The notes beneath the pieces are model-generated. The model searched no databases. It worked only from the letters and a program-made list of their open reading frames with translations, and was not told the origin of the DNA. Positions 27,013-45,373 of a DNA stretch of 64,000 nucleotides are shown piece by piece. The stretch covers positions 1,144 to 65,143 of the forward strand of contig JAZNND010000049.1 in assembly GCA_045580085.1 (NCBI GenBank), read 5' to 3'. Position numbers and translations under genes: made by a program. Positions within the stretch are counted from its first letter, which is position 1. Each line of letters begins with the position of its first letter. Origin of the DNA: Eubacteriales bacterium. GTDB lineage: Bacteria; Bacillota; Clostridia; Oscillospirales; CAG-272.

Positions 27013-27037
27013 TTTATTATTACATTTGTGGTACACT
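27009..27037 (+). promoter_or_regulatory. weak candidate promoter for recombinase gene (TTATTT-17-TACACT with TGn)
   Basis: An extended -10 (TGgTACACT) is present, but the -35 is poor. Confidence 0.3.
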
Positions 27038-27076
27038 AAAGAACAAACAAGGCTAAAAAAGAAAGGATTTGTTTTT

Positions 27077-27916
27077 ATGTATACCGTTTCAAATGAGATG
27101 ATTTTATCGTTTAAGCAATGTCTGCTTGAAAATGAACGTGCCACAGCTACTGTGGATAAATATTTGCGAGATGTCAACACTTTCGTGATATGGCTTGCGG
27201 GAAGGCTGCTTCATAAATCACTTGTGCTTGATTATAAAAAGTATTTAAGCGAACGCTATGCCGTTCGGAGCGTTAATAGTATACTATCGTCTTTGAACGC
27301 CTTCTTTTCATTTCTTAACCGGAATGAGCTTCGCGTGAAGACGCTGAAAGTGCAACGTGAAATTTTTTCGTCTTCCGATAAAGAACTAAGCAAAACAGAA
27401 TATGAACGTTTGCTTTCTGCCGCTAAATCCAAGAAAAATGAGCGCCTCTATCTTTTGATTCAAACAATTTGCGCTACAGGTATTCGTATTTCCGAGCTTC
27501 GCTTTATCACTTGCGAAGCAATCGCAAACGGTTATGCCGATGTTAATAATAAAGGAAAACGCCGCCGCGTTTTTATACCGCGTATGCTGTGCAAAATGCT
27601 TGCGGTATATGTCAAAGATCAGAAAATAAAAAAAGGTTCCGTCTTCGTCACTAAAAACGGAAAACCGCTTGATCGTTCCAACGTTTGGAGCGATATGAAA
27701 AAGCTTGCCAAGAGTGCACATGTTTCCGCAAGTAAGGTTTTTCCCCATAATCTTCGGCATCTTTTTGCGCGCACCTACTATTCTGTTCAAAAAGATATCG
27801 TTCGCCTCGCTGATTTGCTCGGGCACACAAGCATCAACACAACACGCATCTACACAGTTGAAAGCGGTGAAATTCATCGTCGCCATATCGAACGCCTTGG
27901 CCTTTTGCGATGTTAA
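27077..27916 (+). CDS. site-specific tyrosine recombinase (XerC/D / phage-integrase family)
   Basis: 279 aa from the ATG at 27077 (GAAAGGA upstream). Has an N-terminal SAM-like core-binding domain and a catalytic set ATGIRISEL (R), NKGKRRRV (K), HNLRHLFA (HxxR), LLGHTSINTT (H) and RIYT (Y). Confidence 0.9.
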   Translation: MYTVSNEMILSFKQCLLENERATATVDKYLRDVNTFVIWLAGRLLHKSLVLDYKKYLSERYAVRSVNSILSSLNAFFSFLNRNELRVKTLKVQREIFSSSDKELSKTEYERLLSAAKSKKNERLYLLIQTICATGIRISELRFITCEAIANGYADVNNKGKRRRVFIPRMLCKMLAVYVKDQKIKKGSVFVTKNGKPLDRSNVWSDMKKLAKSAHVSASKVFPHNLRHLFARTYYSVQKDIVRLADLLGHTSINTTRIYTVESGEIHRRHIERLGLLRC

Positions 27917-27940
27917 CCACATAATAGTGATTATGTGGTA
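27916..27940. repeat. left inverted repeat (IRL) of candidate invertible switch; lox/dif-like core site
   Basis: ACCACATAATAGTGATTATGTGGTA. It starts on the last base of the recombinase stop codon. It is internally palindromic except for the central AGTG. Confidence 0.85.
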
Positions 27941-27971
27941 GAATGTTCGAAAATTAAAATAATATGAACAA

Positions 27972-28000
27972 ATTATAGCACTTTAGAAAAGAGAAGTCAA
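27972..28000 (-). promoter_or_regulatory. near-consensus sigma-A promoter inside the switch, currently pointing toward the recombinase gene (OFF for the giant gene)
   Basis: The minus strand reads TTGACTtctcttttctaaagtgcTATAAT. The -35 is at 28000..27995, the -10 at 27977..27972, the spacer is 17 nt, and there is a TGn extended -10. Confidence 0.75.
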
Positions 28001-28122
28001 CCTTTTTCCCTAAAAAAATCAATTAAAATTTCAAAATTTACATATTAAGCCCCCATATCTTTTTTCGCCATCAAATTTCTGGGATATTGTTTTTGTCATA
28101 AAGATATTTTTAATTTTGGCAA

Positions 28123-28147
28123 TACCACATAATCACTATTATGTAGT
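28123..28147. repeat. right inverted repeat (IRR) of candidate invertible switch
   Basis: TACCACATAATCACTATTATGTAGT is the reverse complement of IRL with one mismatch (A at 28145 where G is expected). Its central CACT is inverted relative to the AGTG of IRL. Confidence 0.85.
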
Positions 28148-28251
28148 GTTTTCCGAGAGTGGTTGATTCGAAAATATGAAAATAAGACTTATGTGAATGT
28201 GCATCACATTTGCATCAAGGGTATCATATAAAACTCAAAAGGAGAAAAGAC

Positions 28252-28338
28252 ATGAAAAAAATTATTTCGGGCTTTCTGGCAGTTTTAATGGCGGTTATGG
28301 TTTTTCCGTTTGCCGCATTGCCGTTAGACGCTTCTGCG
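28252..28338 (+). other. Sec signal peptide of giant protein (no lipobox Cys)
   Basis: KK n-region, hydrophobic core, and an ASA-A cleavage-type site at residues 27-30. Confidence 0.7.
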
Positions 28339-31300
28339 GCTGAAGCGGACACTGCTTCGCAAAATGCGCGTAGTGCAAATTATGCCGCGCAAGCGACTTC
28401 AGCAGAGGGGGAACCGATTGACGTATGGGACGGCACGGTTGCATCCGGTTTTGAGTACGGAAGCGGTACGGAAGAAGATCCTTATATCATCGCCACCGCG
28501 GAGCAGTTGGCATATTTATCAAAAATATCTGCTTCTAATTATTGCTGGGACTATTACTCTTTGGCGACCAGCATAGATTTGAATGGAAAAACATGGACTC
28601 CAATTCAAAATTTTTGTGGTTTTTTTGAAGGGAATGGCTATACTATTAGAGGCCTTTCTGTTTTAGAACCTATAAACGGAACTGTGGGACTTTTTTCTAC
28701 TTTGGGTTGCTACCTTCATATCGATGGTGGCAATGCAGGTACTGTAATCCAACCATGCGAGATTAGCAATCTGACGATTGAAATAAGCAGTATTAGAATC
28801 GCATATGATTGTTTGGATGTAGGTGGTTTAGTAGGAACAATGTATTGTGGAACGGTGAAAAATGTTTCTGTGTTTGGCGATATAAGCATTAGTAGTACAT
28901 CTGTAAATGTCGGGGGATTGGTTGGCAACTTTACAATTCCAAGTGATGCGCGTGGCAGTACTTATAGAGATATAATAGATTCTTCTTATTCGGGAAACAT
29001 TTCTGCAAGTGCAACGGGAAGCAGTGCAGGAGGAATTTGTGGCCTAATTTCCAATGCCAATATGAATACGTGTAGGTCAGCCGGAACTATTCAAGCAGAT
29101 TGTTCTGGTGGCCTTTGCGGCACAGCTACAGATTGTCTGGTGCTTAATTCGTATTCTAAAGCTACAATATATGGAAGAGGGGGTTTTTCTCCCAAAAGCG
29201 GTGGCTTATTTGGGGTAACTGAGAATTCTTATATTAGGAATTGCTATGCTTCAGGAGATATCAATGTTATTGCCGTTTGGGATTCAGTTGTATGGGCAGG
29301 CGGGGTGATTGGAGAAAGTAAAAAAGGAAGTGTGGAAAACAGCTTTTCTTTCAATAATTCTGTTTGGGGTGTAATAGAAAGTACAGCACAATCAACGGTC
29401 CGTGAAGCGAAAGTGGGAAAATTAATTGGAGACTCTTCCAATACATCCATTTCCTATTCTTATGTAAAAAGTAATACATCAATTCAACGTTCCGGACATC
29501 AAGTACATGATAATGGATGCAAGGATGATACGTATAGCCATCCTACCTTGACGACTCCTTCCAATCAAGTGGAAACAGGAACGATTTCTTCTGTTACTAA
29601 TGCCTTCATTTTCTCCACCCTTGGTTGGGATCGCTCTGTTTGGGCTCTTGACTCGGGCGAGTTGCCGCATTTGAAATGGGAAGATAAGCTTGGTTGCACC
29701 ACTCGCTTTATCAAGGACGGAAAAGTAATCGGCGTTGAATACAAAGAAGTAGATTACGGCGCAACCTATACGTGCAAAGCCGATCCCATTACCGGATACA
29801 ACGCCGGAGAAATCAATACCAAGGTCTACGCAGATAATAGTTTTTACACCATTGAATATACACCGAAAAACGATTGCAAATTGACGGTCGTGTGCAAGTC
29901 AACTACTACCGATAAAGTAATTGATGAAAAAGTTTTTACAAAAGGTGTATTTGACAAAGATTATACAATTAGTGCCGATCAACTGAATGTTACGGGATAT
30001 GAACGCGAGAATACCGCTGTCACCGTTACCATGACAGCGACCGAAAAAACGGTGGATGTTTATTTTACGCCGGTTGAGTCCGAGATTATAGTAACGCATG
30101 TGTACTATGACAAAGATGGAAACGTAGAAAGCCGCGAAACGGATCCTGTCCGTAAAATAAAATATGATGAGACAGTGACCGTATACCCTCGTACAAGAGA
30201 GGGCTACACGACATCGCAGGAGTCAATTGAAATTTCAGGTCAAACGGCATATAACGGCGGAACGCGCAAGTATGAAAGAGAATTTTATTATAATACCAAA
30301 ATTGTTACATATACGATCAAGTTCGTGGATGAAAACGGCACAGAAATAAGAGAGCATGAAGTAATTGAGCAGATAGAGGGCGAAAGGATTGAGCTTACCG
30401 CCGATACTGCGCCAAAAATCGAAGGATATTCTCTTGATGCTGACTCCCTTTTTGCAGAAAAGGCGATGGAGAACACCACGAAAACAATTAGGTATACTCA
30501 CAATAAATATGACGTTTATATCGAGTACGTGGTGGTGGATTACGATGGTAACGAGGATAAGTTCTGTTCGGATCCTGTAGCAACGGATGTTCCTTACGGT
30601 GACACAATAGAGGTTGCTTTAGATGATAAATATAGTAATTTGAACGGCTTTAATGGTAAAATAAAAATTACGCTTAATAAGTCCGAAGTTTTGTATCAAG
30701 AAAATGGCGGGCATTATGAGAAAGTGGTGCTGACTGACGAAGGGTGCATTGTTACCGTGGAAACACAGTATGAAGATGATGCCGATGCTACCACAGTATC
30801 TAAACCAGAGGTGGTTCACCACGGCGGACAAGTTCTGATTGAGCCTTCTGCCAAAGAGTTTTATACCGTTTATTTGTATGAAAAGCGCGAGAATGGTAGT
30901 TTGATTCAAGTAGGGCCTTGCGGCGAAGGCGTTTTGATCACCGATATCCAAAGCAATCGCTATTTTGTGGTGAAATATCAAAGAAATACCATTGCCTCAG
31001 GTGTGTGCGGCGATTTTATGCTTTGGACTCTCTATGAGGGAAATAATCTTTTGAAGATTAAGGGTACCGGTGACATGTATGATTATGCACAAGGAGAAGC
31101 TCCTTGGTATAATTATGCGGAAGAAATTTATGAGGTTCAAATTGCAGACGGTGCAACCTCCATCGGTTCTTATGCGTTTGACGGATGCGTAAATCTCACC
31201 AAGCTTCAAATCGGTGACAGTGTAACGAGTATTGGTTCACGCGCTTTGGAAGGCTGTTCGTCACTCCGCACATTAAGCCTCCCTGCGTCTTTGCAAAAAG

Positions 31301-34300
31301 TAGGAACCGCAGCCTTTGCCGGTTGTGCTCAATTAGAGGCGTTCACGCTTTCTTCGGATAATACATCGTTCGTATTGGATGGCGGTGCGCTTTATCACCT
31401 TGAAAGCAAAGCGCTGATCGCTTATCCGGCATCTCGAACGGGCTCGCTCTTCACGCTTCGAGAAGGGATCGTGGCGATAGCACCCTATGCTTTTTACGGT
31501 AATAAAAGAATTTCTTTTTTGAAGATCCCGCAACCTGTTCTCAAGGAGGACGGAAAGCCAACCTTTGAGTCCTTAAAAACCATCGGTGCGTATGCTTTTG
31601 CAAACAGCTACTTGAATACACTGGAACTTCCGTCTTCCGTAACGGAAATTGAGGAATATGCTTTTGCCGATGCTTATTGTACGAAGATCATCATTTATGG
31701 TGATTTGAGCTCCGTCGGAGACGGTGCTTTCAGTACAAAATGGTACAGCAATTTAAAAATCTATTTCAAGGGCAATGCGCCACTTAGCGTTGGTGAAAAG
31801 ATTTTCGGCGAAGCCAATGAAAAAATTTGCATCTACTATGCTTCCAATAATACCACTTGGCAAGATCAGATCACATATGATACCGTAGATTTAATGAAAT
31901 ATCCTTACTGGAATGATTATTTGGCATACGGTCACAGTAATATGGCGAGCGTTTCCGTTTATAACAGCGGAAATGAAAGCATATATGCCATTTTCGTCAT
32001 GTGCGACAAAACTCCGATTGAAGGTGTGAAGGTCTCCTTCGGTTCCGCCGATCCCAAAGTGACGGATGCAGACGGATTTGTATATTTCACCCATACAAGC
32101 ACAGTCACACAGGTTACTCTATCCGTACAAAAGGAAAATTATTATAGCATATACGACGTTTCATGTACGTACAATTTAAAATCGTTGGGCGTGGATTATA
32201 TCGATCTTGATACAAATTCCTCCGTCAAAGGAATTTCCAGTTTCGGCAATGATATTGCTAACGATACACAGAGCATCAACAACAAATACGACGGAACCAT
32301 TCCGATTTTGGTCAAAGGTGACACGGAGTTTGAGATCACAGCCATGCACTTGGTACAATGGGTATACGATGCCCAAAATCCTTCTTCCGAGCCAATCAAG
32401 AAGGTTCTTCAAACGGTGAAAGCCGGGGATCGTGATCTGGATGCGGATGGATACTGTTTGTTTAAAGTGGAGGCATCCGCATTTTCCTACAAGAAAAATG
32501 AGAATTTGCCGATTGCTGTGGTAATGGAAACAACATCCGGTGAAGAGCCTGTTGTAGAGTTTTTGAACTTAGAGGTTATCTCTGTTTCTTTGGAAATCAG
32601 TTTTGATGATTTGTTCGGTGATGCTAAACCGATATCGTTAGGGGACCTCGGACTTGATTTTTTGGGCGGCGTTTCGATTGATCTTGAAGAAGAAACAGAA
32701 TCAAGCAAGCTGAAGTTTAAAATCGTAAATGATGAAATTTACATTACTTATGATGTGGATTCCGACAAGATCTGGAAAGGTATCGATGCTTTTGAGGATA
32801 ATGTAATGTCTTTGACAGGTTCCGATCATCGGAAACTCAGCGAAATCGTTGAAAGTGCCAACACGCGCGGCAATCAATTTTTGAAAGAGGCGGCGGAGGG
32901 TACGAATAAACGGATGCAAAGGATGGGGGCATCGAGTAAAGTAAACAGCAATTTTTCCATTGAACCTATCTTGAGTGCAGGTATTGCGATCAAACTGACG
33001 AATGACGGCATAAGATCAATACGTACGGAAATGAAGCTCGGCGTTGCTTTTGGAGCTGAATGGAATGCTAATATTACGGTTGTATACGTTCCCATCACAT
33101 TCGGTGCGGAAATAAAGCTTGAGGCATTGGTTGATGTCCCCGATTTGGAGTATGATTTTTCCAAAAAGAAGCTTGGCTTTTCCGACAGCTTTTCGCTTGA
33201 ACTCGGCGGCTCGGTGAAAGTAAATGCCGGGCTCGGCTTCTCCTATCCCGTTGCTGCGGCACATTTAGGCTTTTATGGCAAATGCAGTGCAAAAGTTGAG
33301 ATAGCTCTCGGCAAAACAACTTATTTTGAATATTTGATGCTTTCCGGAGAGCTTGGTGTTTATATTAAACTTAAAGTCGGACCGTTTTCAGTCTTGGATG
33401 AAGAGTATGCACTTCTAAAAGGAAAATATGAGAAGTGGTATACCGAGAACGGCGTCTTAGTGCCGCGTGAACAGATTATGCTATTATCCGAGGATGATCC
33501 GTCAGGTGCTTTTGGAACCTATAATGGCATAGCAATCTATGACCTGTCATCTTACAGTCTTAGAAATTCTACAGCTGAACTCGATCTTGACGATGTGGAA
33601 TGGGGAGAAGAATTCGGCTTGACGGTGGAAAACAATACCTACGTTTATGCGGAACCGCAAATAATCGATTGCAACGGCATTTACGTGGCAGTATATATGG
33701 CACAAGCGGAAGAGCGCGCCGCGGCTGATGCTCAATGCTTGATGTACCGTATATACGATGCGAAAACAGAAACATGGTCGGAAGCTTCTCTCTTGGAAAA
33801 CGACGGCATGAGCGATTCGACTTTTTCTGCAAAATTCCATAACGGGAAATTGTATATCGCTTATGCGCATGCCAACAAAGTGATTGGTGAAGTTTCCGAA
33901 GAGAATGAGACCGAAGCCATCATTGATATGGCGAGAGCGCAAGACATTGCCATTTGTGTTTTGAATCCGCAAACAGGAACGGTGGAGAATATCACTGCTA
34001 TTTCCTCCGATGATGTTTATGAATTTTTGCCCGTTTTGCAGGAAGTGAACGGAACGCTTTATTTGGCGTGGATGTCGAATGATAAAGCAGATGCCCATTC
34101 CGTTTTCGGTATGAACACGAACAACAGTATTTGGGTAAGTACGCTTTCCGGCGGCGCATGGAGTGCACCTAACTGCTTGTTGTCGGATTGCAACCCAATT
34201 GCCGAAATGACACTTGGAAGCTATCAAAACCAACCTTACATCGCGATGATCTTGGATGACGATGCCGATTATTATACCTCACTTGACAGGAACGTATATC

Positions 34301-37300
34301 TTTTAGACACGGAAGGCAATGTGACATTCATCGATTGCGGCGGTATGGGACTTATCTCCTTGCAAAGTGCGGTGGTGGATGGAGAAGAAACATTTGCTTT
34401 CCACAGCAAAGGAAATATTCTCTATATGGATTCTAAAGGTGAATTTTCGGCATGGTACAGTGGAGCGCATGGTGCCGGCATTGATTACAAGCTTCTTTCT
34501 TTAACGGAAGACATCACCATGCTTTTGTGGAGTGAAGCTTCTTTGGAGAATGAGAAGGGGGAATCCATCTCAAAGGTTTATTTTGTACTGCATGAAGACG
34601 GTGGCGAATGGGGAGATGTGAGAGAACTCTTGACGGCATCCCAAAATATGATTTCGTTCGCTGCTACAGCCAACAACGGTGATGTTCAGGTAATCTATGT
34701 CTCGGCACTCATTCAGTCAGCTGAAAATGAGCTTATCATGCTTGGAAACATGTATTCCGATTTCTTTGATATGGATTACAGTTTCTTAGTAGAGGCAACG
34801 GATTTGGTATACAATTCCGAGGCGAACACGATTTCTTCCAAAGCAACGGTCATTAACACCGGTGTAAAAGAGATCAAACGGCTTGCCGGCATGGTTGCAG
34901 TGCTTGATTCTCAAAGCACTGTACGAAAGGTAAAGAAGTATTATCCCATCGGTCTTTATGATGTTAGTATTGGTTACGGTGAAACCGACAGCTGGGATAT
35001 GACTGCTGTTTTGCATCCGGATTGGGTGCAAAGTGAATGCGAGGTCGTCTTTACTGTTTTTGAGGGAAATGAAGAGGATTATCTTGCATATGTTGAACTT
35101 TTGAATCAAGCCATCGAAAACGGCGAAAGTGGCGAAAATATGGGAAGCAGCAGTAGCGGTAGTATCACGGATAAGAATGAAACAAACGGGATGCCGGCAA
35201 CTGCAAATAATGATTTTTATATCAACGGCGAACATATTATCGTTGGCGAAGCCGAATACTTATCGCTTAAGGTAGGAAAAAGCGGTAATGGGATGATGGG
35301 AATGGGTGAAAATGTTTTGAAGGTCTATAAAATCCATGAAGACGGCAAGGAGTTGATTTACAGCGAAAAAATTACGATACATGATGCTCGCCAAATGCAA
35401 TACTTCTTGGTAGAACTGCAAAAAGATTTTTACAGCGAAACAGATGCAGTTTTCGAATGCGTCATCGAGATTAGCAACACTGAGGATGTTGATTTGAGCA
35501 ATAATGTAGTGAGCATCCATGCGGAAAAGCCCGAAAATGCGGCACCAACCCTGTACGATAAAACGGCAATCGCGGCTGAGCTTTCGGCGTATTTCGGAAC
35601 CTTCGATAAATTCAAAGGGGAAGATTTGACTTTGGATATCACCCCCAACGGAAACGGCATATACGGTGTCACGGAGTCGGAGGGCGTGGTTAACAAGGTG
35701 GGTACCGTGGAAGAAAACGGGGTTCTCCATGCTACGGTTTCCGCAGAACAGCTTTCTCAGCTGTCTCTCGGTGAGCATGAGCTTCGTTTCCTGTTTAGCA
35801 CAAAGAACGGCTTTATTGATTGCGTTTTCAATCTCACCGTGATAGATAGCACTCCGATTCCCGTAGAGGGCACCGTTTCGATTCTTGGAACGCCTTCTCG
35901 CGGCAATAGGGTAACAGCGGATATATCCGGAGTCAGCACAAAAGAATTGACATATGAATGGATTATCAATGGAGAAGTGCTTTCAACGGAAAGTAGCTAT
36001 CAGATCACCAATAAAGATCTAGGCAAGGAACTTGTTGTTCGCGTTAGCGGTACCGGTTTTCATCAAGGCACTTTACAAAGCACCCCTGTTTATGTAGAAA
36101 AGCTACCGAGAACCTTGGGTGCTTTGAAAATCTCTTCTGCCATGGATTCTTCTGTTTCTTTGAAAAACATGTTCTATGTCGGTGACGGTGAAATCTATTA
36201 CGGATATTCGCAAGCGAACGATCCTTATGCGGTAACTAATTGGCAAGAGAGTACAAGCTTTGTGCTTCCTGAGGTAGGACAATACTTCTTCTTCGCTAAG
36301 GTTGCCGACAGTGCGACGTATCAAGATTCTTATACCGAAGGACTCTCGTATTCGTATCATAATGACAGCGGTCTGACCGTTGCCGGCTCTACCTTGTCCA
36401 TTCAAAGCGATATTACGATCAATTATTATGTTGATGCTTCCTTCTTGGAAACATATGATAATGTGTATATGGTATTTGCGCACACGAAGCATTTGAATGG
36501 TGGTGGAACGATTGATACGTTTGAAACGATTACCAATTATACCATTCGTCAAAGCGGAAAGTATATTGTTTTCTCTTATGAGGGAATTGCCGCAAAAGAG
36601 ATGGGCGATATGATTCGCGCTGTTGTATATGCGGAAAATGGCGAAACTTTGTATTGCGGTCCCACCGATTATTACAGCGTTTCCGCCTATGCATACAATA
36701 GAATTCAAAATTCTGCGGATGAGAAGATGGTGACTTTGGCAATTGATATCTTAAATTACGGAGCGAGTGCACAGATTTACTTTGGATACAATGAAAAGAA
36801 TCTTGTGAACAGCGAGTTGACACAAGAGCAAAAAGATTACGTAAAAGACGAAGTGCTTGTGGATAATGTTAAAGAATATATTCCCGGTGCGAATGCAAAT
36901 GTAGTGTTTGCAGGTTCTGCATTGCTCTTGGAGGAAAAAGTAGCCATTAAATACTATTTTAATGCCGAAGAATACCTGAAAACGCATTCGGATTTGAGTG
37001 ATCTCCAACTTGTGATTACCTTTGCGGACCAAACCGTTGTTATTCAAGGTGATGCCTTCGTTCATTCTGAGAAGAGTATTTATTATGCGGTTCTGGATGA
37101 ATTGGCAGCAAAGGATATGCGTGTAATATGTCGCGCAACGTTCTATTCCGATTACATGGGTGCGAGTGAGATTGAGCAAAGTGAAACGATGGTTTACAGT
37201 GTTGAGTCTTATGCGTACAGCATGCAAAACAGCACAAATGCGAATATGGTATCGCTAGTAAATGCGATGATGATTTACGGTGATGCCGCAAAGGATTATA

Positions 37301-37308
37301 TAGGATAA
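28252..37308 (+). CDS. giant secreted surface/adhesin-like protein (3018 aa): signal peptide, GLUG repeats, MucBP-like repeats, BspA-type LRR, large uncharacterised C-terminal part
   Basis: One uninterrupted ORF. I preferred the ATG at 28252 (AAAAGGAGAAAAGAC-ATG) to the TTG at 28210. The N-terminus MKKIISGFLAVLMAVMVFPFAALPLDASA/AEA is a Sec signal peptide. See the sub-features below. Confidence 0.9.
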   Translation: MKKIISGFLAVLMAVMVFPFAALPLDASAAEADTASQNARSANYAAQATSAEGEPIDVWDGTVASGFEYGSGTEEDPYIIATAEQLAYLSKISASNYCWDYYSLATSIDLNGKTWTPIQNFCGFFEGNGYTIRGLSVLEPINGTVGLFSTLGCYLHIDGGNAGTVIQPCEISNLTIEISSIRIAYDCLDVGGLVGTMYCGTVKNVSVFGDISISSTSVNVGGLVGNFTIPSDARGSTYRDIIDSSYSGNISASATGSSAGGICGLISNANMNTCRSAGTIQADCSGGLCGTATDCLVLNSYSKATIYGRGGFSPKSGGLFGVTENSYIRNCYASGDINVIAVWDSVVWAGGVIGESKKGSVENSFSFNNSVWGVIESTAQSTVREAKVGKLIGDSSNTSISYSYVKSNTSIQRSGHQVHDNGCKDDTYSHPTLTTPSNQVETGTISSVTNAFIFSTLGWDRSVWALDSGELPHLKWEDKLGCTTRFIKDGKVIGVEYKEVDYGATYTCKADPITGYNAGEINTKVYADNSFYTIEYTPKNDCKLTVVCKSTTTDKVIDEKVFTKGVFDKDYTISADQLNVTGYERENTAVTVTMTATEKTVDVYFTPVESEIIVTHVYYDKDGNVESRETDPVRKIKYDETVTVYPRTREGYTTSQESIEISGQTAYNGGTRKYEREFYYNTKIVTYTIKFVDENGTEIREHEVIEQIEGERIELTADTAPKIEGYSLDADSLFAEKAMENTTKTIRYTHNKYDVYIEYVVVDYDGNEDKFCSDPVATDVPYGDTIEVALDDKYSNLNGFNGKIKITLNKSEVLYQENGGHYEKVVLTDEGCIVTVETQYEDDADATTVSKPEVVHHGGQVLIEPSAKEFYTVYLYEKRENGSLIQVGPCGEGVLITDIQSNRYFVVKYQRNTIASGVCGDFMLWTLYEGNNLLKIKGTGDMYDYAQGEAPWYNYAEEIYEVQIADGATSIGSYAFDGCVNLTKLQIGDSVTSIGSRALEGCSSLRTLSLPASLQKVGTAAFAGCAQLEAFTLSSDNTSFVLDGGALYHLESKALIAYPASRTGSLFTLREGIVAIAPYAFYGNKRISFLKIPQPVLKEDGKPTFESLKTIGAYAFANSYLNTLELPSSVTEIEEYAFADAYCTKIIIYGDLSSVGDGAFSTKWYSNLKIYFKGNAPLSVGEKIFGEANEKICIYYASNNTTWQDQITYDTVDLMKYPYWNDYLAYGHSNMASVSVYNSGNESIYAIFVMCDKTPIEGVKVSFGSADPKVTDADGFVYFTHTSTVTQVTLSVQKENYYSIYDVSCTYNLKSLGVDYIDLDTNSSVKGISSFGNDIANDTQSINNKYDGTIPILVKGDTEFEITAMHLVQWVYDAQNPSSEPIKKVLQTVKAGDRDLDADGYCLFKVEASAFSYKKNENLPIAVVMETTSGEEPVVEFLNLEVISVSLEISFDDLFGDAKPISLGDLGLDFLGGVSIDLEEETESSKLKFKIVNDEIYITYDVDSDKIWKGIDAFEDNVMSLTGSDHRKLSEIVESANTRGNQFLKEAAEGTNKRMQRMGASSKVNSNFSIEPILSAGIAIKLTNDGIRSIRTEMKLGVAFGAEWNANITVVYVPITFGAEIKLEALVDVPDLEYDFSKKKLGFSDSFSLELGGSVKVNAGLGFSYPVAAAHLGFYGKCSAKVEIALGKTTYFEYLMLSGELGVYIKLKVGPFSVLDEEYALLKGKYEKWYTENGVLVPREQIMLLSEDDPSGAFGTYNGIAIYDLSSYSLRNSTAELDLDDVEWGEEFGLTVENNTYVYAEPQIIDCNGIYVAVYMAQAEERAAADAQCLMYRIYDAKTETWSEASLLENDGMSDSTFSAKFHNGKLYIAYAHANKVIGEVSEENETEAIIDMARAQDIAICVLNPQTGTVENITAISSDDVYEFLPVLQEVNGTLYLAWMSNDKADAHSVFGMNTNNSIWVSTLSGGAWSAPNCLLSDCNPIAEMTLGSYQNQPYIAMILDDDADYYTSLDRNVYLLDTEGNVTFIDCGGMGLISLQSAVVDGEETFAFHSKGNILYMDSKGEFSAWYSGAHGAGIDYKLLSLTEDITMLLWSEASLENEKGESISKVYFVLHEDGGEWGDVRELLTASQNMISFAATANNGDVQVIYVSALIQSAENELIMLGNMYSDFFDMDYSFLVEATDLVYNSEANTISSKATVINTGVKEIKRLAGMVAVLDSQSTVRKVKKYYPIGLYDVSIGYGETDSWDMTAVLHPDWVQSECEVVFTVFEGNEEDYLAYVELLNQAIENGESGENMGSSSSGSITDKNETNGMPATANNDFYINGEHIIVGEAEYLSLKVGKSGNGMMGMGENVLKVYKIHEDGKELIYSEKITIHDARQMQYFLVELQKDFYSETDAVFECVIEISNTEDVDLSNNVVSIHAEKPENAAPTLYDKTAIAAELSAYFGTFDKFKGEDLTLDITPNGNGIYGVTESEGVVNKVGTVEENGVLHATVSAEQLSQLSLGEHELRFLFSTKNGFIDCVFNLTVIDSTPIPVEGTVSILGTPSRGNRVTADISGVSTKELTYEWIINGEVLSTESSYQITNKDLGKELVVRVSGTGFHQGTLQSTPVYVEKLPRTLGALKISSAMDSSVSLKNMFYVGDGEIYYGYSQANDPYAVTNWQESTSFVLPEVGQYFFFAKVADSATYQDSYTEGLSYSYHNDSGLTVAGSTLSIQSDITINYYVDASFLETYDNVYMVFAHTKHLNGGGTIDTFETITNYTIRQSGKYIVFSYEGIAAKEMGDMIRAVVYAENGETLYCGPTDYYSVSAYAYNRIQNSADEKMVTLAIDILNYGASAQIYFGYNEKNLVNSELTQEQKDYVKDEVLVDNVKEYIPGANANVVFAGSALLLEEKVAIKYYFNAEEYLKTHSDLSDLQLVITFADQTVVIQGDAFVHSEKSIYYAVLDELAAKDMRVICRATFYSDYMGASEIEQSETMVYSVESYAYSMQNSTNANMVSLVNAMMIYGDAAKDYIG
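28650..29450 (+). other. GLUG-motif repeat region of giant protein
   Basis: Recurrent G-G-[LIV]-x-G motifs about every 25-30 aa: VGGLVGTM, VGGLVGNF, AGGICGLI, SGGLCGTA, SGGLFGVT, AGGVIGES. Confidence 0.6.
29690..30850 (+). other. MucBP-like beta-repeat region of giant protein
   Basis: Four to five repeats of roughly 70-90 aa with the pattern x-V-x-Y..D..G..I........G......P.I.GY (for example YTIKFVDENGTEIREHEVIEQIEGERIELTADTAPKIEGYSLD). Confidence 0.5.
31000..31870 (+). other. BspA-type leucine-rich repeat (LRR_5-like) region of giant protein
   Basis: Repeating ...I.IGDSVTSIGSRALEGCSSLRTLSLPASLQKVGTAAFAGC..L... and TIGAYAFANSYLNTLELPSSVTEIEEYAFAD units. Confidence 0.7.
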
Positions 37309-37314
37309 AAAAGA

Positions 37315-37342
37315 GGAATGCCGTATACTTGTACGGCATTCC
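37315..37342 (+). terminator. stem-loop after giant gene (no T-run; possible attenuator/processing site)
   Basis: ggaatgccgta (37315-37325) pairs perfectly with tacggcattcc (37332-37342). It is followed by CGAACC rather than a U-tract. Confidence 0.4.
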
Positions 37343-37363
37343 CGAACCTAAAGGAATCTATGT

Positions 37364-38116
37364 ATGATTGAACAAATTGATCTTGGCTTTTTTGAAATCA
37401 GCTTATACTATTTTTTTCATGTATTAGGATTTGCCACTGTTGCGGCTTTTAATGTTTGGTATGGTAAGAAATACGGTATCTCGTGGCATAAAGCACTTAT
37501 CTTTACGGCTATCGTCTACAGTTTGACTTACCTATGGATCCATGTTCAATTTTGGATTGAAACCGGCTTCAAGATTTGGGGCGGTCAAAACATAGTGAGG
37601 GGTTTTGTATACGTACCCTTGATAGCTTATCCTATAGCGCGATTAATGAGAATGCAATGGAGAAAAACTTGTGATTTTATTGCGCCGTGTGTTTGCATTG
37701 CGCAAGGTGTCAGCCATGTGGGGTGCATTTTCCCGGGGTGTTGTCACGGATATCCGTGGCAATGGGGTATATACAACAACAGCTTGGGCGTGAGAACATT
37801 TCCGGTTCAGCTGTTGGAGGCTGCAACGGCGTGGATCATTGTTTTTGTTATTGTCTACCGCGCCTATGAAAAAAAATATGCGTCGGATGGGGTTTCCTAT
37901 CCTTTGATGCTTTTTCTGTTTGGCAGTACGCGTTTTTTGTGGGAATTTATGAGAGATAATGATAAGATCTTTTTAGGTTGTTCTTCGTTGTCTTTTCATG
38001 CACTTTTTATGGCGGCGGTAGGAGGTGCTTTTTTGCTGATCTTGTCTTGTCGAGAGAAGCGAACGGCGAAATTAAACAAAAAACTATGCCGTAGAAAACA
38101 AAAAAAGAGAAAATAG
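37364..38116 (+). CDS. Lgt (prolipoprotein diacylglyceryl transferase) family paralog, divergent
   Basis: 250 aa, polytopic. CDFIAPCVCIAQGVSHVGCIFPGCCHGYP aligns by eye to the Lgt block D-F-I-A-P...G-R-x-G-N/C-F-x-N-G-E/C. FPVQLLEAATAWIIVF matches P-x-Q-L-Y-E, and GSTRFLWEFMRDN matches R-x-x-x-E-F-x-R. Confidence 0.7.
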   Translation: MIEQIDLGFFEISLYYFFHVLGFATVAAFNVWYGKKYGISWHKALIFTAIVYSLTYLWIHVQFWIETGFKIWGGQNIVRGFVYVPLIAYPIARLMRMQWRKTCDFIAPCVCIAQGVSHVGCIFPGCCHGYPWQWGIYNNSLGVRTFPVQLLEAATAWIIVFVIVYRAYEKKYASDGVSYPLMLFLFGSTRFLWEFMRDNDKIFLGCSSLSFHALFMAAVGGAFLLILSCREKRTAKLNKKLCRRKQKKRK

Positions 38117-38149: not shown

Positions 38150-38284
38150 ATGGAAAAGTATGAGAAACCGTGGTTTAGTGTGATAGAAATCGCGGTAGAA
38201 GATATTATGGTGGTTTCGGGTGGCTCTAAACCACCGGCCACTGAAGAAGACGATGACAATGAGACGGAATTTGATCCTCGTTGA
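38150..38284 (+). CDS. unlisted 44-codon ORF: MEKYEKPWFSVIEIAVEDIMVVSGGSKPPATEEDDDNETEFDPR
   Basis: It is not in the ORF track, presumably because it falls below the track's length cutoff. AAAGGAGG lies 8 nt upstream of the ATG at 38150. It is followed at 38291 by a strong terminator. The coding status is unproven. Confidence 0.4.
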   Translation: MEKYEKPWFSVIEIAVEDIMVVSGGSKPPATEEDDDNETEFDPR

Positions 38285-38290
38285 CAAACG

Positions 38291-38328
38291 AAAAGAGACT
38301 TTCAGCATCATGCATGAAAGTCTCTTTT
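38291..38328. terminator. bidirectional rho-independent terminator (small ORF / mutY)
   Basis: aaaagagactttc (38291-38303) pairs perfectly with gaaagtctctttt (38316-38328). A-runs and T-runs lie on both sides. Confidence 0.75.
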
Positions 38329-38330
38329 CC

Positions 38331-39401
38331 TTAGTTCTCAATTTGCCTTTTAAACACTCCGAAGGCGGAGGCAATGGGGTAAACGGTTTTGATTTCGTCG
38401 GATGTGGCGAGGACAAAGCCGTTTTTTTCTTCCCATGCGGTGCATTCGATCAAATAGCCCGACATATGCCATTCCTTGTGGGTGAAAATGTGGATGCCGC
38501 CTTCGGCGGCTATCGCGCCGTCGGCGTGGACACCGAGGGTGTGGGCGAAGGCAAGCGCATCCTCTGCCGAGAGCGTGCCATCGGTGTTCGGGAATTCCCA
38601 AAGTCCGCCGAGCAAGCCCTTGGCGGGGCGTTTGTGTAAAACGAATTTTCCTTCTTTTTCATCGGCAATATGAAGAATGAGAACGGTTTTTTTCTCTATT
38701 TTTCGCTTGGCTTTTGGGGTTCTGTGAGGAAGAGTGAGGGCTGTGCCGTTTTCGGCGGCTTGGCAAATAGAGCGAAGCGGACAAGAATCGCACAGCGGTG
38801 CGCCGTTCGGGAGGCAAAAGCGTTGCCCGATCTCCATCATGCCTTGCGTGACATCCGCTGAGCGATTCTTGGGAAAGGCGGCGGAAAGACGCTCGGTGAT
38901 TTCTTTTTTGACGGCGGCGTTTAGAATATCTCTTTCGTCTTCAAAAACGCGGGCATAAATGCGAAGCACATTCCCATCCACCGCCGCACGCGGAATACCG
39001 AAACAAATGCTTCCGATTGCCGCGGCGGTATATTCTCCCACCCCGGGGAGTGTGAGAAGCTGTTCGTAGCTTTCGGGAAAATGACCGTCATATGTTTGAA
39101 TGATTTCTTTGGCGGCGCGGTGTAAGTTGCGAGCGCGACTGTAATAACCGAGCCCTTCCCACAGCTTCAAGACGGTTTCTTCTTCTGCCTCGGCTAAAGC
39201 GGAAAGTGAGGGCAGCGTGTCTAAAAAACGGTGAAAATAAGGGATGACTGCCTCCACGCGCGTTTGCTGAAGCATGATTTCCGAAAGCCAAACTTTATAG
39301 GGAGAGATGTCTTCGCGCCACGGGAGCATACGACCGTTTTGACGGTAAAAATCTGCTATGATTTCTAAGAGTTGTTTGCATTTTTGCATGTTTGTGACCA
39401 T
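38331..39401 (-). CDS. mutY: A/G-specific adenine DNA glycosylase
   Basis: 356 aa. Contains LPWRED..PYKVWLSEIMLQQTRV, the HhH-GPD motif (LPGVGEYTAAAI), a 4Fe-4S cluster loop (C..C..C.....C) and a C-terminal NUDIX-like domain. Confidence 0.9.
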   Translation of the reverse strand: MVTNMQKCKQLLEIIADFYRQNGRMLPWREDISPYKVWLSEIMLQQTRVEAVIPYFHRFLDTLPSLSALAEAEEETVLKLWEGLGYYSRARNLHRAAKEIIQTYDGHFPESYEQLLTLPGVGEYTAAAIGSICFGIPRAAVDGNVLRIYARVFEDERDILNAAVKKEITERLSAAFPKNRSADVTQGMMEIGQRFCLPNGAPLCDSCPLRSICQAAENGTALTLPHRTPKAKRKIEKKTVLILHIADEKEGKFVLHKRPAKGLLGGLWEFPNTDGTLSAEDALAFAHTLGVHADGAIAAEGGIHIFTHKEWHMSGYLIECTAWEEKNGFVLATSDEIKTVYPIASAFGVFKRQIEN

Positions 39402-39580: not shown

Positions 39581-41080
39581 ATGGGCATCATAATTAATGA
39601 TGATTTTGAGATATATACCAAACACCTATGGCGGCAAGGTATATCCGAGAGTGCCGGTGAGGCACAAGCGCGTTCCTATATTCGCCGTTACGCGAATACG
39701 CAGGTGACCGCCATTTTTTTCAATGTGAACGCACAGCTTTCCAGCTCTCCCAGTGAGGTTTTGGAAACCGTCGGTGAAAAATATCTCAAAAAAGAAGTGG
39801 ACGGTATTCCCGTTGATTTTTCCGATACATTGCATAAAGGATGGTATGATCAGTTTGTTCGAAATGGCCTTGATCTGTATGCCATCTTTGTCGACGAATG
39901 CCGCGCGTGCGGTATCTCTCCGTGGCTCTCTTTCCGTCTCAATGATACACATGATAATTTGGAACCCACGGGCGGTTTGCGTCAAAGCAATTTTACTCAT
40001 ACGGCGCGCCGCGATGGCAGAAGCCGTTGCCGTCACAGAGAAGTAACGGGTTATTACGATAACTGCCTTGATTATGCCGTGCCTGCCGTACGCGAGCTTT
40101 TTTTGGCGTATGTAAGAGAACAGTTAGACCGTTATGATGTTGACGGAATTGAAATTGATTTTCTGCGAGAGCCTTTTCTTTTCTCGCCGGGGTATGAGGA
40201 TGAGGGAAGAGAAATCGTAAAAGAAATGATAAAGAAGGTTCGCTCTTATGCAGATGCCGCGGCAGAGATGTACGGGCACCCTGTTCAGCTTTCCGTGCGC
40301 ACCTTCCGAGATCCCGAAAGTGATTATTACGCAGGTATTGACACGCCAACTTTAGCGCGAGAGGGGATTGTCGATGCCGTTACGGTGTCCTGCCGTTGGG
40401 AAAGTACCGACAGCGATATACCGCTTGCACATTGGCGCGCGATTTTGCCCGCCGAGACGCGCTTATCGCTTTCTTCCGAAATGAATTACCGTGCTCCGAA
40501 CAGAGAAGATGCACGCTGTACCCCTGAGCTTTTGCGCGGACTTGCCAATTATGCACTTTCGGCAGGCGCGGATGATTTTTATATGTTCAATTACTCTTAT
40601 CTTGCGCTTCCCACAGGGGAAGGTCTGCCGGAATGCCCTAGTGCTGAGCCTTTCTTGGCACTTTTAAATGAGGTCGGCAGTCTTGACACATTGCGTGCGC
40701 TCCCGCGCCGCCATGTGCTTACCTATAACGATCTGACCGCATACGGTATGCGCACGCGCCCCACCCTCCCTCTTGAGGTCACGCGCCGCCATGAAAAGTC
40801 TGCCGTGCGTCTCTTTACAGGTGAACCGCGCGAAAAAATGTATTTGCTCCTCGATATCGATACCGATGCGGAAAATCTTTCGGTCTATCTCAATGCCGCG
40901 CCTGTTCGATATCTTGGCAAGGCAAAGGTGGAAGAGGCATACGCCTCTTGTGCGCTTCATGTTTTTGAGGCAGACTGCCTTCGCCCCGTTACGCAGATGC
41001 TTGAAGTCGGTGTCAAAGACGAGGAAAGCTATTTGCTGAAATATGCTGAGCTTTGTACCGAACGTCCCACGCTTGTCTAA
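39581..41080 (+). CDS. hypothetical protein, possibly TIM-barrel glycoside-hydrolase-like
   Basis: 499-aa ORF with good coding appearance. DVDGIEIDFLREPFLF and LSFRLNDTHD resemble strand-end motifs of GH-like TIM barrels. The family is not recognised with confidence. Confidence 0.5.
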   Translation: MGIIINDDFEIYTKHLWRQGISESAGEAQARSYIRRYANTQVTAIFFNVNAQLSSSPSEVLETVGEKYLKKEVDGIPVDFSDTLHKGWYDQFVRNGLDLYAIFVDECRACGISPWLSFRLNDTHDNLEPTGGLRQSNFTHTARRDGRSRCRHREVTGYYDNCLDYAVPAVRELFLAYVREQLDRYDVDGIEIDFLREPFLFSPGYEDEGREIVKEMIKKVRSYADAAAEMYGHPVQLSVRTFRDPESDYYAGIDTPTLAREGIVDAVTVSCRWESTDSDIPLAHWRAILPAETRLSLSSEMNYRAPNREDARCTPELLRGLANYALSAGADDFYMFNYSYLALPTGEGLPECPSAEPFLALLNEVGSLDTLRALPRRHVLTYNDLTAYGMRTRPTLPLEVTRRHEKSAVRLFTGEPREKMYLLLDIDTDAENLSVYLNAAPVRYLGKAKVEEAYASCALHVFEADCLRPVTQMLEVGVKDEESYLLKYAELCTERPTLV

Positions 41081-41105
41081 AATTTATACTATACAGGAGA
41101 CTCTT

Positions 41106-41837
41106 ATGGAATTTAATGTTAATCATCCCATTCTGTTTGTGTTTGCCGCCGTGATCATCATAGCGGTGCTCGGTCAGTCTTTCTATTTTCTTTTCCGCGC
41201 ATGTATGCGCGCGAAGGAACTTGGCATGGATAAAGCCAAAATCAGAAAAACCATAACCTCTGCCGCCATATTTACCGTTGCGCCGGCTGTTTCTATTTTG
41301 GTTGGCGTTCTGGTTCTTTCCAAAAAGCTCGGTGTTGCGCTTCCTTGGCTCAGACTTTCCATCATCGGTTCTCTCAGCTATGAAACGGTTGCCGCTGAGA
41401 CAACCATCGAACAACTTGGTGTGGAAGGCACCGAAGCTATCACGGCATCCGGTTTTGTTACCGTTCTTTGGGTGATGACGCTTGGTATTATTCTCGGACT
41501 GGCACTGGTTCCCGTGCTTGCCAAACGCATTCAAAAGGGAATCAAAAAAATGGAAAAAAGGGATAACCGTTGGGGCGAGATCTTCAATAACGCCATGTTT
41601 CTCGGCATGATTTCCGCTTTTCTCGGCTATGTTTTTTGCGATGTTTCCACCATCTTCTCAGGCGACGCGTCGGGGCTTATTCCCGTATGCGTTATGGCCG
41701 TGTCGGCGTTGATCATGGTCGTGTGCGGTTTGCTCTCCAAAAAGCTCGGTGCCCGCTGGCTGACGGATTATGCCTTGCCCTTCAGCCTCATTGGCGGCAT
41801 GGCAGCTGCTATTCCGATTACGGCGTGGTTGATTTAA
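41106..41837 (+). CDS. polytopic membrane protein of unknown function (DUF5058-like by recollection)
   Basis: I chose the start at the ATG at 41106 (AGGAG 8 nt upstream), since the ORF-track start overlaps the previous gene. The 243-aa product is hydrophobic. Confidence 0.55.
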   Translation: MEFNVNHPILFVFAAVIIIAVLGQSFYFLFRACMRAKELGMDKAKIRKTITSAAIFTVAPAVSILVGVLVLSKKLGVALPWLRLSIIGSLSYETVAAETTIEQLGVEGTEAITASGFVTVLWVMTLGIILGLALVPVLAKRIQKGIKKMEKRDNRWGEIFNNAMFLGMISAFLGYVFCDVSTIFSGDASGLIPVCVMAVSALIMVVCGLLSKKLGARWLTDYALPFSLIGGMAAAIPITAWLI

Positions 41838-45270: not shown

Positions 45271-45373
45271 GTTCCGGCCTTCGGTGAGAAGGCGCATAAA
45301 AATTGATACAGCTATGCAATAAGCCTTCTCGAAGTGCGCAGGATGACATCTGCGCATGATGGAGGAAAATGTC

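Follow-up and report, generated by a model that had tools for sequence, protein, structure and literature searches.

The window analysed here is a stretch of 64,000 nucleotides from a clostridial genome (Eubacteriales bacterium, GenBank assembly GCA_045580085.1, contig JAZNND010000049.1, positions 1,144 to 65,143 of the forward strand), and our subject is the gene at 28252-37308 (+), which encodes a secreted protein of 3018 residues (the giant protein), together with the genes that surround it. We found that this protein ends in a folded domain of 320 residues, hereafter the tail, and we tentatively suggest that the tail is what retains the protein on the cell. The gene is the single long open reading frame (ORF) of its region (28210..37308, +); it begins at an ATG at 28252 with the ribosome-binding site (RBS) AAAGGAG 7 nt 5' of it, and runs to its end with zero internal stops. 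The N-terminus reads MKKIISGFLAVLMAVMVFPFAALPLDASA|AEA and has an n-region, a hydrophobic core and an A-S-A site of the Sec/signal peptidase I type, and the resulting Sec signal peptide covers residues 1-29 (28252..28338, +), as read from the translation, a hydropathy of 2.41 and the A-S-A|A cleavage site. Neither translation nor hydropathy revealed a lipobox ([LVI][ASTVI][GAS]C) at its end, which reads ...LPLDASA|AE, since the first Cys of the protein is residue 98. A secreted protein of this length with a Sec signal peptide and no lipobox had been described in a first-pass annotation made from the sequence alone, and the ORF, RBS and signal peptide all bear that description out. The hydrophobic core, at ~22 residues (Kyte-Doolittle value 2.41), is long and is the only segment of the protein of transmembrane (TM) grade, and this would suit a signal peptide that stays uncleaved and serves as an N-terminal membrane anchor. 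However, a canonical A-x-A site is present here and in both orthologues described below (ASA|A, HAA|A and SSA|D), and an N-terminal tether would bury the binding modules of a 3,000-residue protein at the membrane, so we regard this reading as very improbable.

No known anchor was found elsewhere in the protein. A regular-expression and hydropathy scan of the last 140 residues found no LPXTG-like motif, and the C-terminal region has no hydrophobic segment (best C-terminal hydropathy 1.07). Pfam and NCBIfam searches of the whole protein gave no match at E<=1 to SLH, CWB2, LysM, SH3/SH3b, choline-binding, GW, WxL or dockerin domains, and Pfam searches of ten segments gave none at E<=10 for the same set (SLH, CWB2, LysM, SH3b, choline-binding, GW, WxL and Dockerin_1). 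The first-pass annotation had reported no LPXTG motif, C-terminal TM helix, SLH or choline-binding repeat and had proposed profile searches for an overlooked sortase signal, SLH or CWB2 domain; within the reach of these tools the searches agree with it and reveal no standard anchor. The C-terminal end is also as it was given there (...MMIYGDAAKDYIG), and the protein as a whole is strongly acidic (pI 4.4; net charge ~-205, tail included). The 10 kb that hold the gene (28001-38000) have a G+C content of 0.40-0.44, against 0.45-0.50 in the flanks, and a strongly positive GC skew of 0.11-0.16, which could reflect either foreign origin or the strong compositional bias of an acidic repeat protein. 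The exact 3018-residue protein is present in a collection of 15 billion proteins, inside a 90% cluster that is represented by a 52-residue fragment, and for this reason our first representative-based homology search missed it; fragment representatives possibly hid other giant proteins from that search as well.

Directly 3' of a gene for a 296-residue tyrosine recombinase (27026..27916, +; Pfam Phage_integrase 9.4e-27 and Phage_int_SAM_1) lies a candidate invertible promoter element (27916..28147), in which 25-nt inverted repeats (27916-27940 and 28123-28147, 96% complementary) enclose 182 bp. The recombinase is a candidate invertase; its NCBIfam matches are to Xer-type and, weakly, to tyrosine-type DNA invertase models, all under the equivalog cut-offs. 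A promoter scan of the element found TTGACT-17-TATAAT with a TG extended -10 on the minus strand (28000->27972; sigma-70 score 11/12), an orientation that, as assembled, is predicted to be OFF for the giant gene, and inversion would aim the promoter at that gene. The earlier proposal of phase variation thereby gains the support of inverted repeats, a recombinase gene and an enclosed promoter. Phase-variable surface proteins with an invertible promoter and a tyrosine recombinase are known from Clostridioides difficile (cwpV/RecV) and from the promoter inversions of Bacteroides fragilis. As in cwpV/RecV-type switches, the recombinase gene abuts inverted repeats around a strong promoter 5' of a large surface-protein gene; unlike in those switches, only the OFF orientation was seen, in one assembly, and neither of the two orthologous loci (L001, L003) has the switch.

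Two genes that the first-pass annotation overlooked, both conserved partners that bear on retention, follow the giant gene on the same strand: a gene for a 250-residue paralogue of the Lgt family (37364..38116, +) and a gene for a peptide of 44 residues (38150..38284, +). The gaps are 55 bp between the giant and Lgt-like genes and 33 bp between the Lgt-like and peptide genes, each with an RBS, and no terminator on the + strand stands between the giant gene and a hairpin at 38290..38330. From this spacing and the lack of a + strand terminator, the three genes appear to form one phase-variable operon that would be co-transcribed from the invertible promoter. A hairpin at 37315..37342 (+; dG -19.5 kcal/mol, z -6.7), between the giant and Lgt-like genes, has no U-run on the + strand and is terminator-like for the minus strand only; it could act to attenuate transcription or to stabilise the transcript. 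The operon-end hairpin (38290..38330; dG -24.1 kcal/mol, z -7.0) was not called by a simple terminator scan and is likely a bidirectional terminator, convergent with mutY (38331-39401, -), which abuts it. Farther along the window, a 521-residue ORF (45356-46921) has a T-box leader (45015-45244, +; Rfam RF00230, 120 bits) upstream; together with the sources of the relatives, this leader suggests Firmicutes/Clostridia of gut or rumen type as the origin of the DNA.

The C-terminal tail and its companion peptide gene

Close relatives of the giant protein were very few in word-indexed searches. One orthologue, P0001 (2807 residues, encoded at locus L001), shows 33-37% identity as far as residue ~2700; another, L003g (2388 residues), comes from a goat-rectum Clostridia metagenome-assembled genome and was reached via its neighbouring Lgt-like gene. 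A three-way alignment showed that all three proteins share the signal peptide, a GLUG domain, MucBP repeats in varying number and a core at ~1232-2700, while a block of leucine-rich repeats (LRR) is present in the giant protein and P0001 and missing from L003g. The three C-termini are all different in this alignment: L003g ends in a Dockerin_1 domain (Pfam, residues 2316-2368 of 2388, 3.6e-8), and P0001 in an unrelated domain of ~130 residues, whose kinship with the giant protein's tail we rejected (hhalign probability 0.07). The layout is a signal peptide, swappable GLUG, MucBP-like and BspA-type LRR modules, a conserved core of ~1,450 residues and a swappable C-terminal module. A few kb from the giant gene, a DUF5058 gene is followed by an unannotated gene of ~220-234 codons in both the window (41043-41837) and L001 (4592-5341); the pair lies on opposite sides at the two loci, marking rearranged synteny around the giant/Lgt-like gene pair.

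The tail (residues 2700-3018 plus the stop codon, 36349..37308, +) was delimited and characterised by AlphaFold2 (AF2), Foldseek, Pfam and profile searches. AF2, given an alignment of 54 sequences, models the last 320 residues with high confidence as two copies of an immunoglobulin (Ig)-like beta-sandwich followed by a helical hairpin (predicted local distance difference test, pLDDT, 90; predicted TM-score, pTM, 0.88). No specific neighbour was found in the PDB, where Foldseek returned only generic pairs of fibronectin type III (FnIII) or Ig domains at a TM-score of ~0.2, and no Pfam domain covers the tail in the giant protein or in its 155 homologues. The profile search recovered at least 155 Clostridia proteins with the tail, the named sources being Ruminococcus, Oscillospiraceae and Clostridium sp. 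In 51 of 53 aligned homologues, 0-10 residues follow the tail, which places it at the extreme C-terminus. The modules ahead of it are diverse (GLUG, LRR_5, Flg_new, CBM77, CBM48-like and a ubiquitin domain); full-length proteins exist that consist of a signal peptide, a CBM77 or CBM48-like module and the tail, and so do stand-alone proteins of ~320 residues with only a signal peptide and the tail. In one homologue, P0102 (418 residues), a signal peptide and a genuine ubiquitin domain (1e-30 with Pfam ubiquitin) precede the C-terminal tandem tail, which makes it a secreted, possibly surface-displayed bacterial ubiquitin.

The tail occupies the position at which relatives have a dockerin, as in L003g and in 15 of the 30 sampled relatives of a cassette in the core (see below), and a dockerin (PF00404) is listed for none of the 155 tail-bearing proteins. 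This architecture suggests that the C-terminus acts as a swappable address, with a dockerin, an unrelated domain or the tail set behind a shared core. Basic wall-binding modules typically bind the wall by charge. The tails are uniformly acidic (pI 4.2-4.9, n=54; 4.4 for the giant protein's own tail), and charge-based binding of anionic wall polymers is therefore unlikely; docking to a protein or other ligand fits better. One of the two guesses of the first-pass annotation, an unrecognised C-terminal wall-binding domain, thus stands as far as a folded domain of 320 residues without a Pfam or PDB match goes, while its wall-binding part is unlikely given the acidity.

Tail genes are closely accompanied by genes for small peptides. 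Across eight external loci, a 35-39-residue ORF of one family lies ~15-90 bp 3' of 9 of the 10 tail genes, and with the window included the count is 10 of 11. The peptides consist of MKERYETPEMEIVEFETEDIITTSG followed by a short acidic, Pro-containing end, often E-[LT]-x-F-x-P. When a profile of six external peptides was run against 1,774 segments of the window, the sole match was the 44-residue ORF at 38150-38284 (MEKYEKPWFSVIEIAVEDIMVVSGGSKPPATEEDDDNETEFDPR; E=3.6e-5, next best E ~7), which has the RBS AAAGGAGGA and ends ...ETEFDPR. The pairing of a tail gene with a small-peptide gene is a solid genomic observation, and its tightness suggests a dedicated, genome-encoded partner or ligand of the tail.

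Five of the external loci (L082, L083, L085, L087 and L090) have, next after the peptide gene, a gene for an acidic, low-complexity protein of 150-240 residues that is predicted to be membrane- or lipid-anchored, which we call the stalk protein (L083 9789-10235, L085 9577-10071, L087 7836-8318, L082 9131-9736 and L090 8416-9138). Three of these carry a lipobox, and those of L082 and L090 an N-terminal TM segment; their bodies are long, acidic and rich in Ser, Thr and Glu, and their C-termini read ...(I/V)ELPF(V/I)P(V/A)E. Genes for an HprK-like ScmC, a PqqD-type recognition protein, an S26-like peptidase and an ABC exporter come after the stalk gene at L083, L085, L087 and L090, with an NTP_transf_5 gene at L083 and L087, and L082 has only the ABC exporter. 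None of these maturation genes (ScmC, PqqD, S26, ABC or NTP_transf_5) is present in the window, no NCBIfam model matches the companion peptides, and we found no relevant literature on ScmC.

This gene set recalls the lasso-type class of ribosomally made peptides with post-translational modifications (RiPPs). Firmicutes lasso-peptide clusters of the paeninodin type have PqqD (RiPP recognition element, RRE), HPr-kinase-like and nucleotidyltransferase tailoring genes (PMC7533575). The companion peptides resemble these in their Y-x-x-P leader-like motif and T-x-G junction, by comparison with a lasso-type leader, and in the PqqD, HprK-like ScmC, NTP_transf_5 and ABC exporter genes that follow them in other genomes. 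They differ in that no lasso cyclase or B2 protease was seen at the external loci, where there is an S26-like peptidase instead, and in that the peptide genes are coupled to genes for tail-bearing surface proteins, in the window with no maturation genes at all.

We favour the reading that the tail is a retention or address module, one that would dock to a protein or peptide partner and in this way keep the giant protein at the cell without a covalent bond, and we put it forward tentatively, at somewhat less than an even chance. A different reading, which we consider unlikely but worth serious weight, is that the giant protein is released or loosely associated, with the tail serving as a carbohydrate-binding module (CBM)-like or peptide-binding module of a soluble or matrix agglutinin or of a bridge between cells and particles. 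It would account for the lack of an anchor of any known class, for the strong acidity of the whole protein and for the tail's occurrence as a stand-alone secreted protein, and the Ig-like sandwich of the tail is a fold found in many CBMs. On the other hand, the tail and the dockerin are mutually exclusive at the same position, the occurrence of the tail behind CBM77 or CBM48-like modules in small proteins is explained less easily by a second substrate-binding module than by a tether, and the close association with a peptide gene hints at a partner that is dedicated to the tail and encoded in the genome.

Domain map and conserved core

The N-terminal modules named in the first-pass annotation (GLUG, MucBP and BspA-type LRR) all score above their Pfam cut-offs, the first two marginally. 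The GLUG-repeat domain (residues ~55-480, 28414..29691, +) has four stretches of Glug (PF07581, cut-off 20.5 bits; whole protein 20.6, segment 26) and is kept in P0001 and L003g. The MucBP-like repeats (residues 481-915, 29692..30996, +) comprise three stretches of MucBP (PF06458; 24.6-25.2 bits against 23), differ in copy number among the orthologues and are more strongly matched in P0001 (50.9 bits). Their placement behind a Sec signal peptide is shared with the LPXTG-anchored MucBP adhesins of lactobacilli and streptococci; unlike those, the giant protein has no LPXTG motif, its MucBP matches are marginal and its remaining architecture is unrelated. The BspA-type LRR block (residues 916-1231, 30997..31944, +) matches LRR_5 (PF13306) at 4.6e-33 (114.3 bits, gathering cut-off 27.7) and gives the protein its only PDB sequence matches, to BspA-type LRR proteins over residues 931-1190 (4fs7 at 1.8e-30, 4h09 and 4gt6; 1e-28 to 1e-30). 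In these matches the protein resembles the BspA, LrrG and HupY-type LRR adhesins, and it differs from them in scoring 51.7 bits against a cut-off of 1250 with NF047961 and in that the block makes up ~10% of its length and is dispensable in L003g.

The conserved core opens with two beta-rich domains (residues 1232-1437, 31945..32562, +), which are kept in all three orthologues, have no Pfam match at E<=10 and are modelled by AF2 with low confidence. They include the stretch that had been read as carboxypeptidase-regulatory-like (residues 1232-1335), an assignment we could not uphold: neither PF13620 nor PF13715 nor any other Pfam family matches it at E<=10, and its AF2 pLDDT is ~30. A true CarboxypepD_reg domain occurs in 1 of the 30 sampled cassette relatives. 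At its far end (residues 2160-2705, 34729..36366, +) the core holds Ig-like domains, which are CARDB-like in relatives, and CBM_X2-like and PKD-like domains; here the Pfam matches are weak, with CBM_X2 (1e-4) and PKD_3 (2.8e-3) both under their cut-offs in the giant protein and stronger in P0001.

Between these lies a cassette of ~700 residues (1438-2166, 32563..34749, +) that was delimited by profile search, AF2 and Foldseek and that recurs in proteins with no other kinship to the giant protein (P0123-P0129). Used as a profile in an exhaustive search, it returned 2,586 representative clusters at E<=1e-3, 883 of them at E<=1e-30; the proteins are ~700-4,600 residues long, and most match the cassette nearly end to end. 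No Pfam model exists for it, and no BNR, sialidase or glycoside hydrolase (GH) family matches it even at E<=10. It thus marks out a large family of giant proteins in Clostridia that has no annotation and whose members end most often in a type I dockerin. The first-pass annotation had left more than 1500 residues unassigned; these belong to the conserved core and contain this cassette, with its predicted sialidase-like propeller.

AF2 modelled the core poorly from a seven-sequence alignment (mean pLDDT 50), with the propeller half at 65-85. The cassette is predicted to begin with a beta-rich module with two long helices (residues 1438-1760) and to continue as a six-bladed Asp-box propeller (residues 1761-2166); in the first half (1438-1792) the two long helices and very long beta-hairpins have pLDDT <50 and are uninterpretable. 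For the propeller, Foldseek ranked GH33 sialidases and trans-sialidases and polysaccharide lyases of families PL24 and PL42 best (E ~1e-8, TMt 0.3-0.5, 9-12% identity). In the alignment the propeller has three partial Asp-box-like motifs (D-G-x-x-W-[ST], against S-x-D-x-G-x-T-W), and Arg and Asp residues are invariant across the cassette family.

These features raise the prospect that the core is catalytic, with the propeller cassette acting as a GH or lyase and the giant protein as a surface-displayed enzyme, which would be compatible with any retention model. The structural matches, the Asp-box-like motifs and invariant Arg and Asp residues, and the presence of dockerins and CBM26 in family members, as in cellulosome and amylosome enzymes, all point that way. 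However, the TM-scores of those matches reach only 0.3-0.5, at 9-12% identity, Asp-box propellers are common in non-enzymes, and neither a Pfam match to BNR, sialidase or GH families nor the FRIP arginine of GH33 sialidases is present, the corresponding positions, which hold no Arg, reading YAEPQII in the giant protein, YAKPQLV in P0001 and NDAKPQIV in P0123. We judge a catalytic core to be unlikely on balance. Of the earlier description, a mosaic with adhesin-type modules stands; that it is an adhesin and not an enzyme is not established, given the predicted sialidase-like propeller, and we use "adhesin" as a label of convenience.

The C-terminal swapping seen among the orthologues extends to the cassette family. 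The Pfam content of the 30 sampled relatives includes Dockerin_1 in 15, LRR_5 in 11, DUF6273 in 8, CARDB in 7 and CBM26 in 3. Among the 150 best cassette matches, many end in a dockerin and many in a Lys-rich fn3 domain, 7 in the giant protein's tail and 2 in a TM helix, and none in an LPXTG motif with a TM segment. The Lys-rich fn3 ending reads ...YYVRVRAYKK..GKWSKVKKIKIKK and occurs in P0135, P0140, P0149, P0154, P0156, P0161, P0162, P0203, P0215 and others; because of its strong positive charge, this module is a further candidate for a wall- or membrane-binding address module.

The Lgt-like neighbour

The protein encoded at 37364..38116 (+) matches the Pfam LGT family nearly end to end (PF01790, 60.6 bits against 24.9, profile positions 4-238 of 240), and falls below the equivalog cut-offs of TIGR00544 (32.4 against 118.9 bits) and NF000778 (53 against 334). 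Aligned with E. coli Lgt (5azb), it keeps the scaffold, with DxxAP, G145/G150/G154, FPxQxxE and GxxRFxxEFxR (R239, E243, R246), and replaces H103 by V, R143 by H, N146 by C, E151 by C, L152 by C and Y235 by F; the residue numbers derive from this alignment and from the E. coli sequence. The change is systematic across 19 paralogues, in which G-R143-L-G-N146-F-I-N-G-E151-L becomes S-H-x-G-C-[IV]-F-[AP]-G-C-C. The catalytic residues considered were Y26, H103, R143, N146, E151, G154, R239 and E243, and the His/Cys cluster takes the place of residues that are reported for E. coli Lgt to be essential for diacylglyceryl transfer. Since the R239/E243/R246 motifs are kept, half of the phospholipid site would be retained, with a His/Cys cluster in the other half. 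The protein thus resembles E. coli Lgt in fold family and in these residues, and differs from it in its substituted catalytic residues, in having no lipobox substrate nearby and in being coupled to giant proteins that are not lipoproteins.

The gene adjoins the giant gene in 3 of 3 orthologous loci despite rearrangement: it lies downstream in the window and directly upstream in L001 and L003, where it overlaps the giant gene by 4 bp or is separated from it by 5 bp, and the window's protein is 56% and 44% identical to the products of those two genes. More widely, paralogues of at least ~30% identity, collected from the orthologue loci and a metagenome scan, abut a gene for a large signal-peptide protein in 13 of 14 informative loci, usually lying immediately upstream of it and often overlapping it, and the partner families vary (Flg_new, LRR_5 and GLUG). 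The window has no second Lgt-family ORF. These recurrent contexts suggest that giant secreted proteins have in the Lgt-like protein a conserved accessory, one that probably helps to mature them or to retain them at the membrane. We found no literature on an Lgt paralogue tied to adhesins, dockerins or giant secreted proteins; the nearest published idea concerns MYXO-CTERM sorting, for which a step of "Lgt-like" type has been put forward as a hypothesis (PMC11980579).

Several paralogues stand in contexts of their own. At L018 (5289-6023) and L019 (3952-4686) a paralogue 35% identical to the window's lies inside a type IV pilus operon with PilB-, PilT- and PilC-like genes, between proteins of 508 and 157 residues with prepilin-type N-termini (GFTLVELIVVIAILGI). 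At L011 (3213-4662) and L012 (2-1457), a tandem pair of Lgt-like genes that have diverged from each other stands ahead of a secreted Flg_new protein of >3,000 residues. Distant Lgt-like proteins with the motif GC[IV]F[A]GCC occur in freshwater and soil metagenomes (L060-L062, L068, L070, L076, L078 and L079), each gene lying 24-43 bp 3' of that for a ~456-479-residue protein that starts M.N..IHR.E..IK.T.SRCP.C, which is a different conserved context. Large proteins that adjoin the Lgt-like gene at L008 (2655-8024 and 10778-12061) and L016 (2868-7973) have N-termini ending ...TFAWM, SYAWLV or TFAWLT, which may be akin to SipW/TasA-type signal peptides. A link between the tail and the Lgt-like gene was rejected, as 0 of 8 external tail loci have one, and so was a link between the cassette and this gene, as the loci of the cassette relatives P0126 and P0129 lack it.

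The conserved adjacency brings in another explanation of retention, namely that the Lgt-like enzyme, with no need of a lipobox, links the giant protein covalently to a lipid of the membrane or else processes or tethers it. It would suit a polytopic protein of the Lgt fold that keeps R239, E243 and R246 beside one His and three Cys, that is the sole Lgt-family product of the window, whose active site is rewired in the same way in 19 sequences, that is better conserved (56%) than the giant proteins themselves (33-37%), and whose gene keeps its place beside the giant gene at each of the three orthologous loci and beside varied large signal-peptide proteins elsewhere. Against this, the partner proteins share no Cys or motif beyond ordinary signal-peptide features, and in the giant protein the first Cys comes at residue 98; there is therefore no support for lipidation of the partner through a classical thioether. 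Partners also have tethers of their own, such as the dockerin of L003g and, in L007n, repeats that resemble choline-binding-type wall-binding repeats by eye only and were not called by Pfam. Further, the L018/L019 paralogue belongs to a pilus operon, the GC[IV]F[AP]GCC motif is also found in distant members of the Lgt-like group whose contexts are unrelated, the His/Cys cluster could bind a metal in a structural role, and we found no literature on such a function of the enzyme. We rate covalent attachment or processing by this enzyme as distinctly unlikely to explain retention.

Possible retention of the giant protein and its meaning

In the reading that we favour, docking by the tail, the Sec-exported giant protein would be held at the surface by its C-terminus in the manner of a dockerin and cohesin rather than by binding a wall polymer. 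The candidate ligand is the E-[LT]-x-F-x-P motif on the companion peptides; in other genomes this motif is also found on the membrane-anchored acidic stalk proteins encoded beside the peptides, and there the stalk could be a wall-spanning tether. Promoter inversion controlled by the recombinase would switch on the giant, Lgt-like and peptide genes together.

Several observations weigh against this reading. One tail gene, at L086, has no peptide gene. In the window there is no stalk protein, lipoprotein or other protein that ends in E[LT]xFxP except the 44-residue peptide itself, and no cohesin-like protein; the peptide itself lacks a signal peptide, and an exporter gene is likewise missing from its surroundings in the window. 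The position of the tail at a putative address site is an argument from architecture, and the stand-alone proteins of signal peptide and tail are no less in keeping with a domain of ligand-binding or structural function than with an anchor. The activity of the passenger is not established, given the poor AF2 model of the core (mean pLDDT 50). Finally, since the external tail loci and the loci of P0126 and P0129 lack the Lgt-like gene, the three partner features can occur apart from one another, and their roles may be unrelated. A fuller scheme is one that we consider improbable: a display system independent of sortase and dockerin, in which the tail would be the receptor for E-[LT]-x-F-x-P, carried by the small ORF and the stalk and tailored elsewhere by the RRE, kinase and nucleotidyltransferase proteins, and in which the Lgt-like enzyme would add lipid attachment or processing at the membrane.

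The giant protein belongs to a known kind, the giant modular surface proteins of Clostridia, and is akin to the dockerin-bearing LRR/Ig proteins of cellulosome-like systems in ruminococci (PMC2930009, PMC13463774). Non-enzymatic dockerin-bearing proteins with LRR, Ig and MucBP modules have been described in the cellulosome and amylosome systems of R. flavefaciens FD-1, R. bromii and "R. difficilis" (PMC2930009, PMC4611034, PMC13463774). Like these, the giant protein is a giant modular secreted Clostridia protein that combines LRR, Ig and mucin-binding-type modules, its cassette family includes members with Dockerin_1 and CBM26, and its orthologue L003g ends in a dockerin; unlike them, it has the 320-residue tail at the dockerin position, and no cohesin partner is implied for it. 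What is new here is the dockerin-replacing tail with its companion peptide gene, the dedicated Lgt-like gene and the phase switch.

Gut and rumen Clostridia have many giant "adhesin-like" proteins without a recognisable anchor, and this locus bears on how such proteins stay on the cell. It offers four handles on the question: an unannotated cassette family (at least 2,586 clusters), apparently the passenger that dockerin-type display systems share with others; a recurrent C-terminal domain that replaces the dockerin (at least 155 clusters); the pairing of tail and peptide genes, which suggests a dedicated ligand; and an Lgt-like subfamily with a His/Cys-substituted active site that is tied genetically to giant secreted proteins. 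Should a tether be formed by the tail, alone or together with the peptide, it would be a new class among the few surface-display mechanisms of Gram-positive bacteria, and would improve the prediction of surface proteomes for uncultured gut bacteria. If the Lgt-like enzyme acts without a lipobox, the scope of protein lipidation would be wider. Should neither be true, the analysis would still provide a domain map for a type of protein that current databases leave two-thirds blank.

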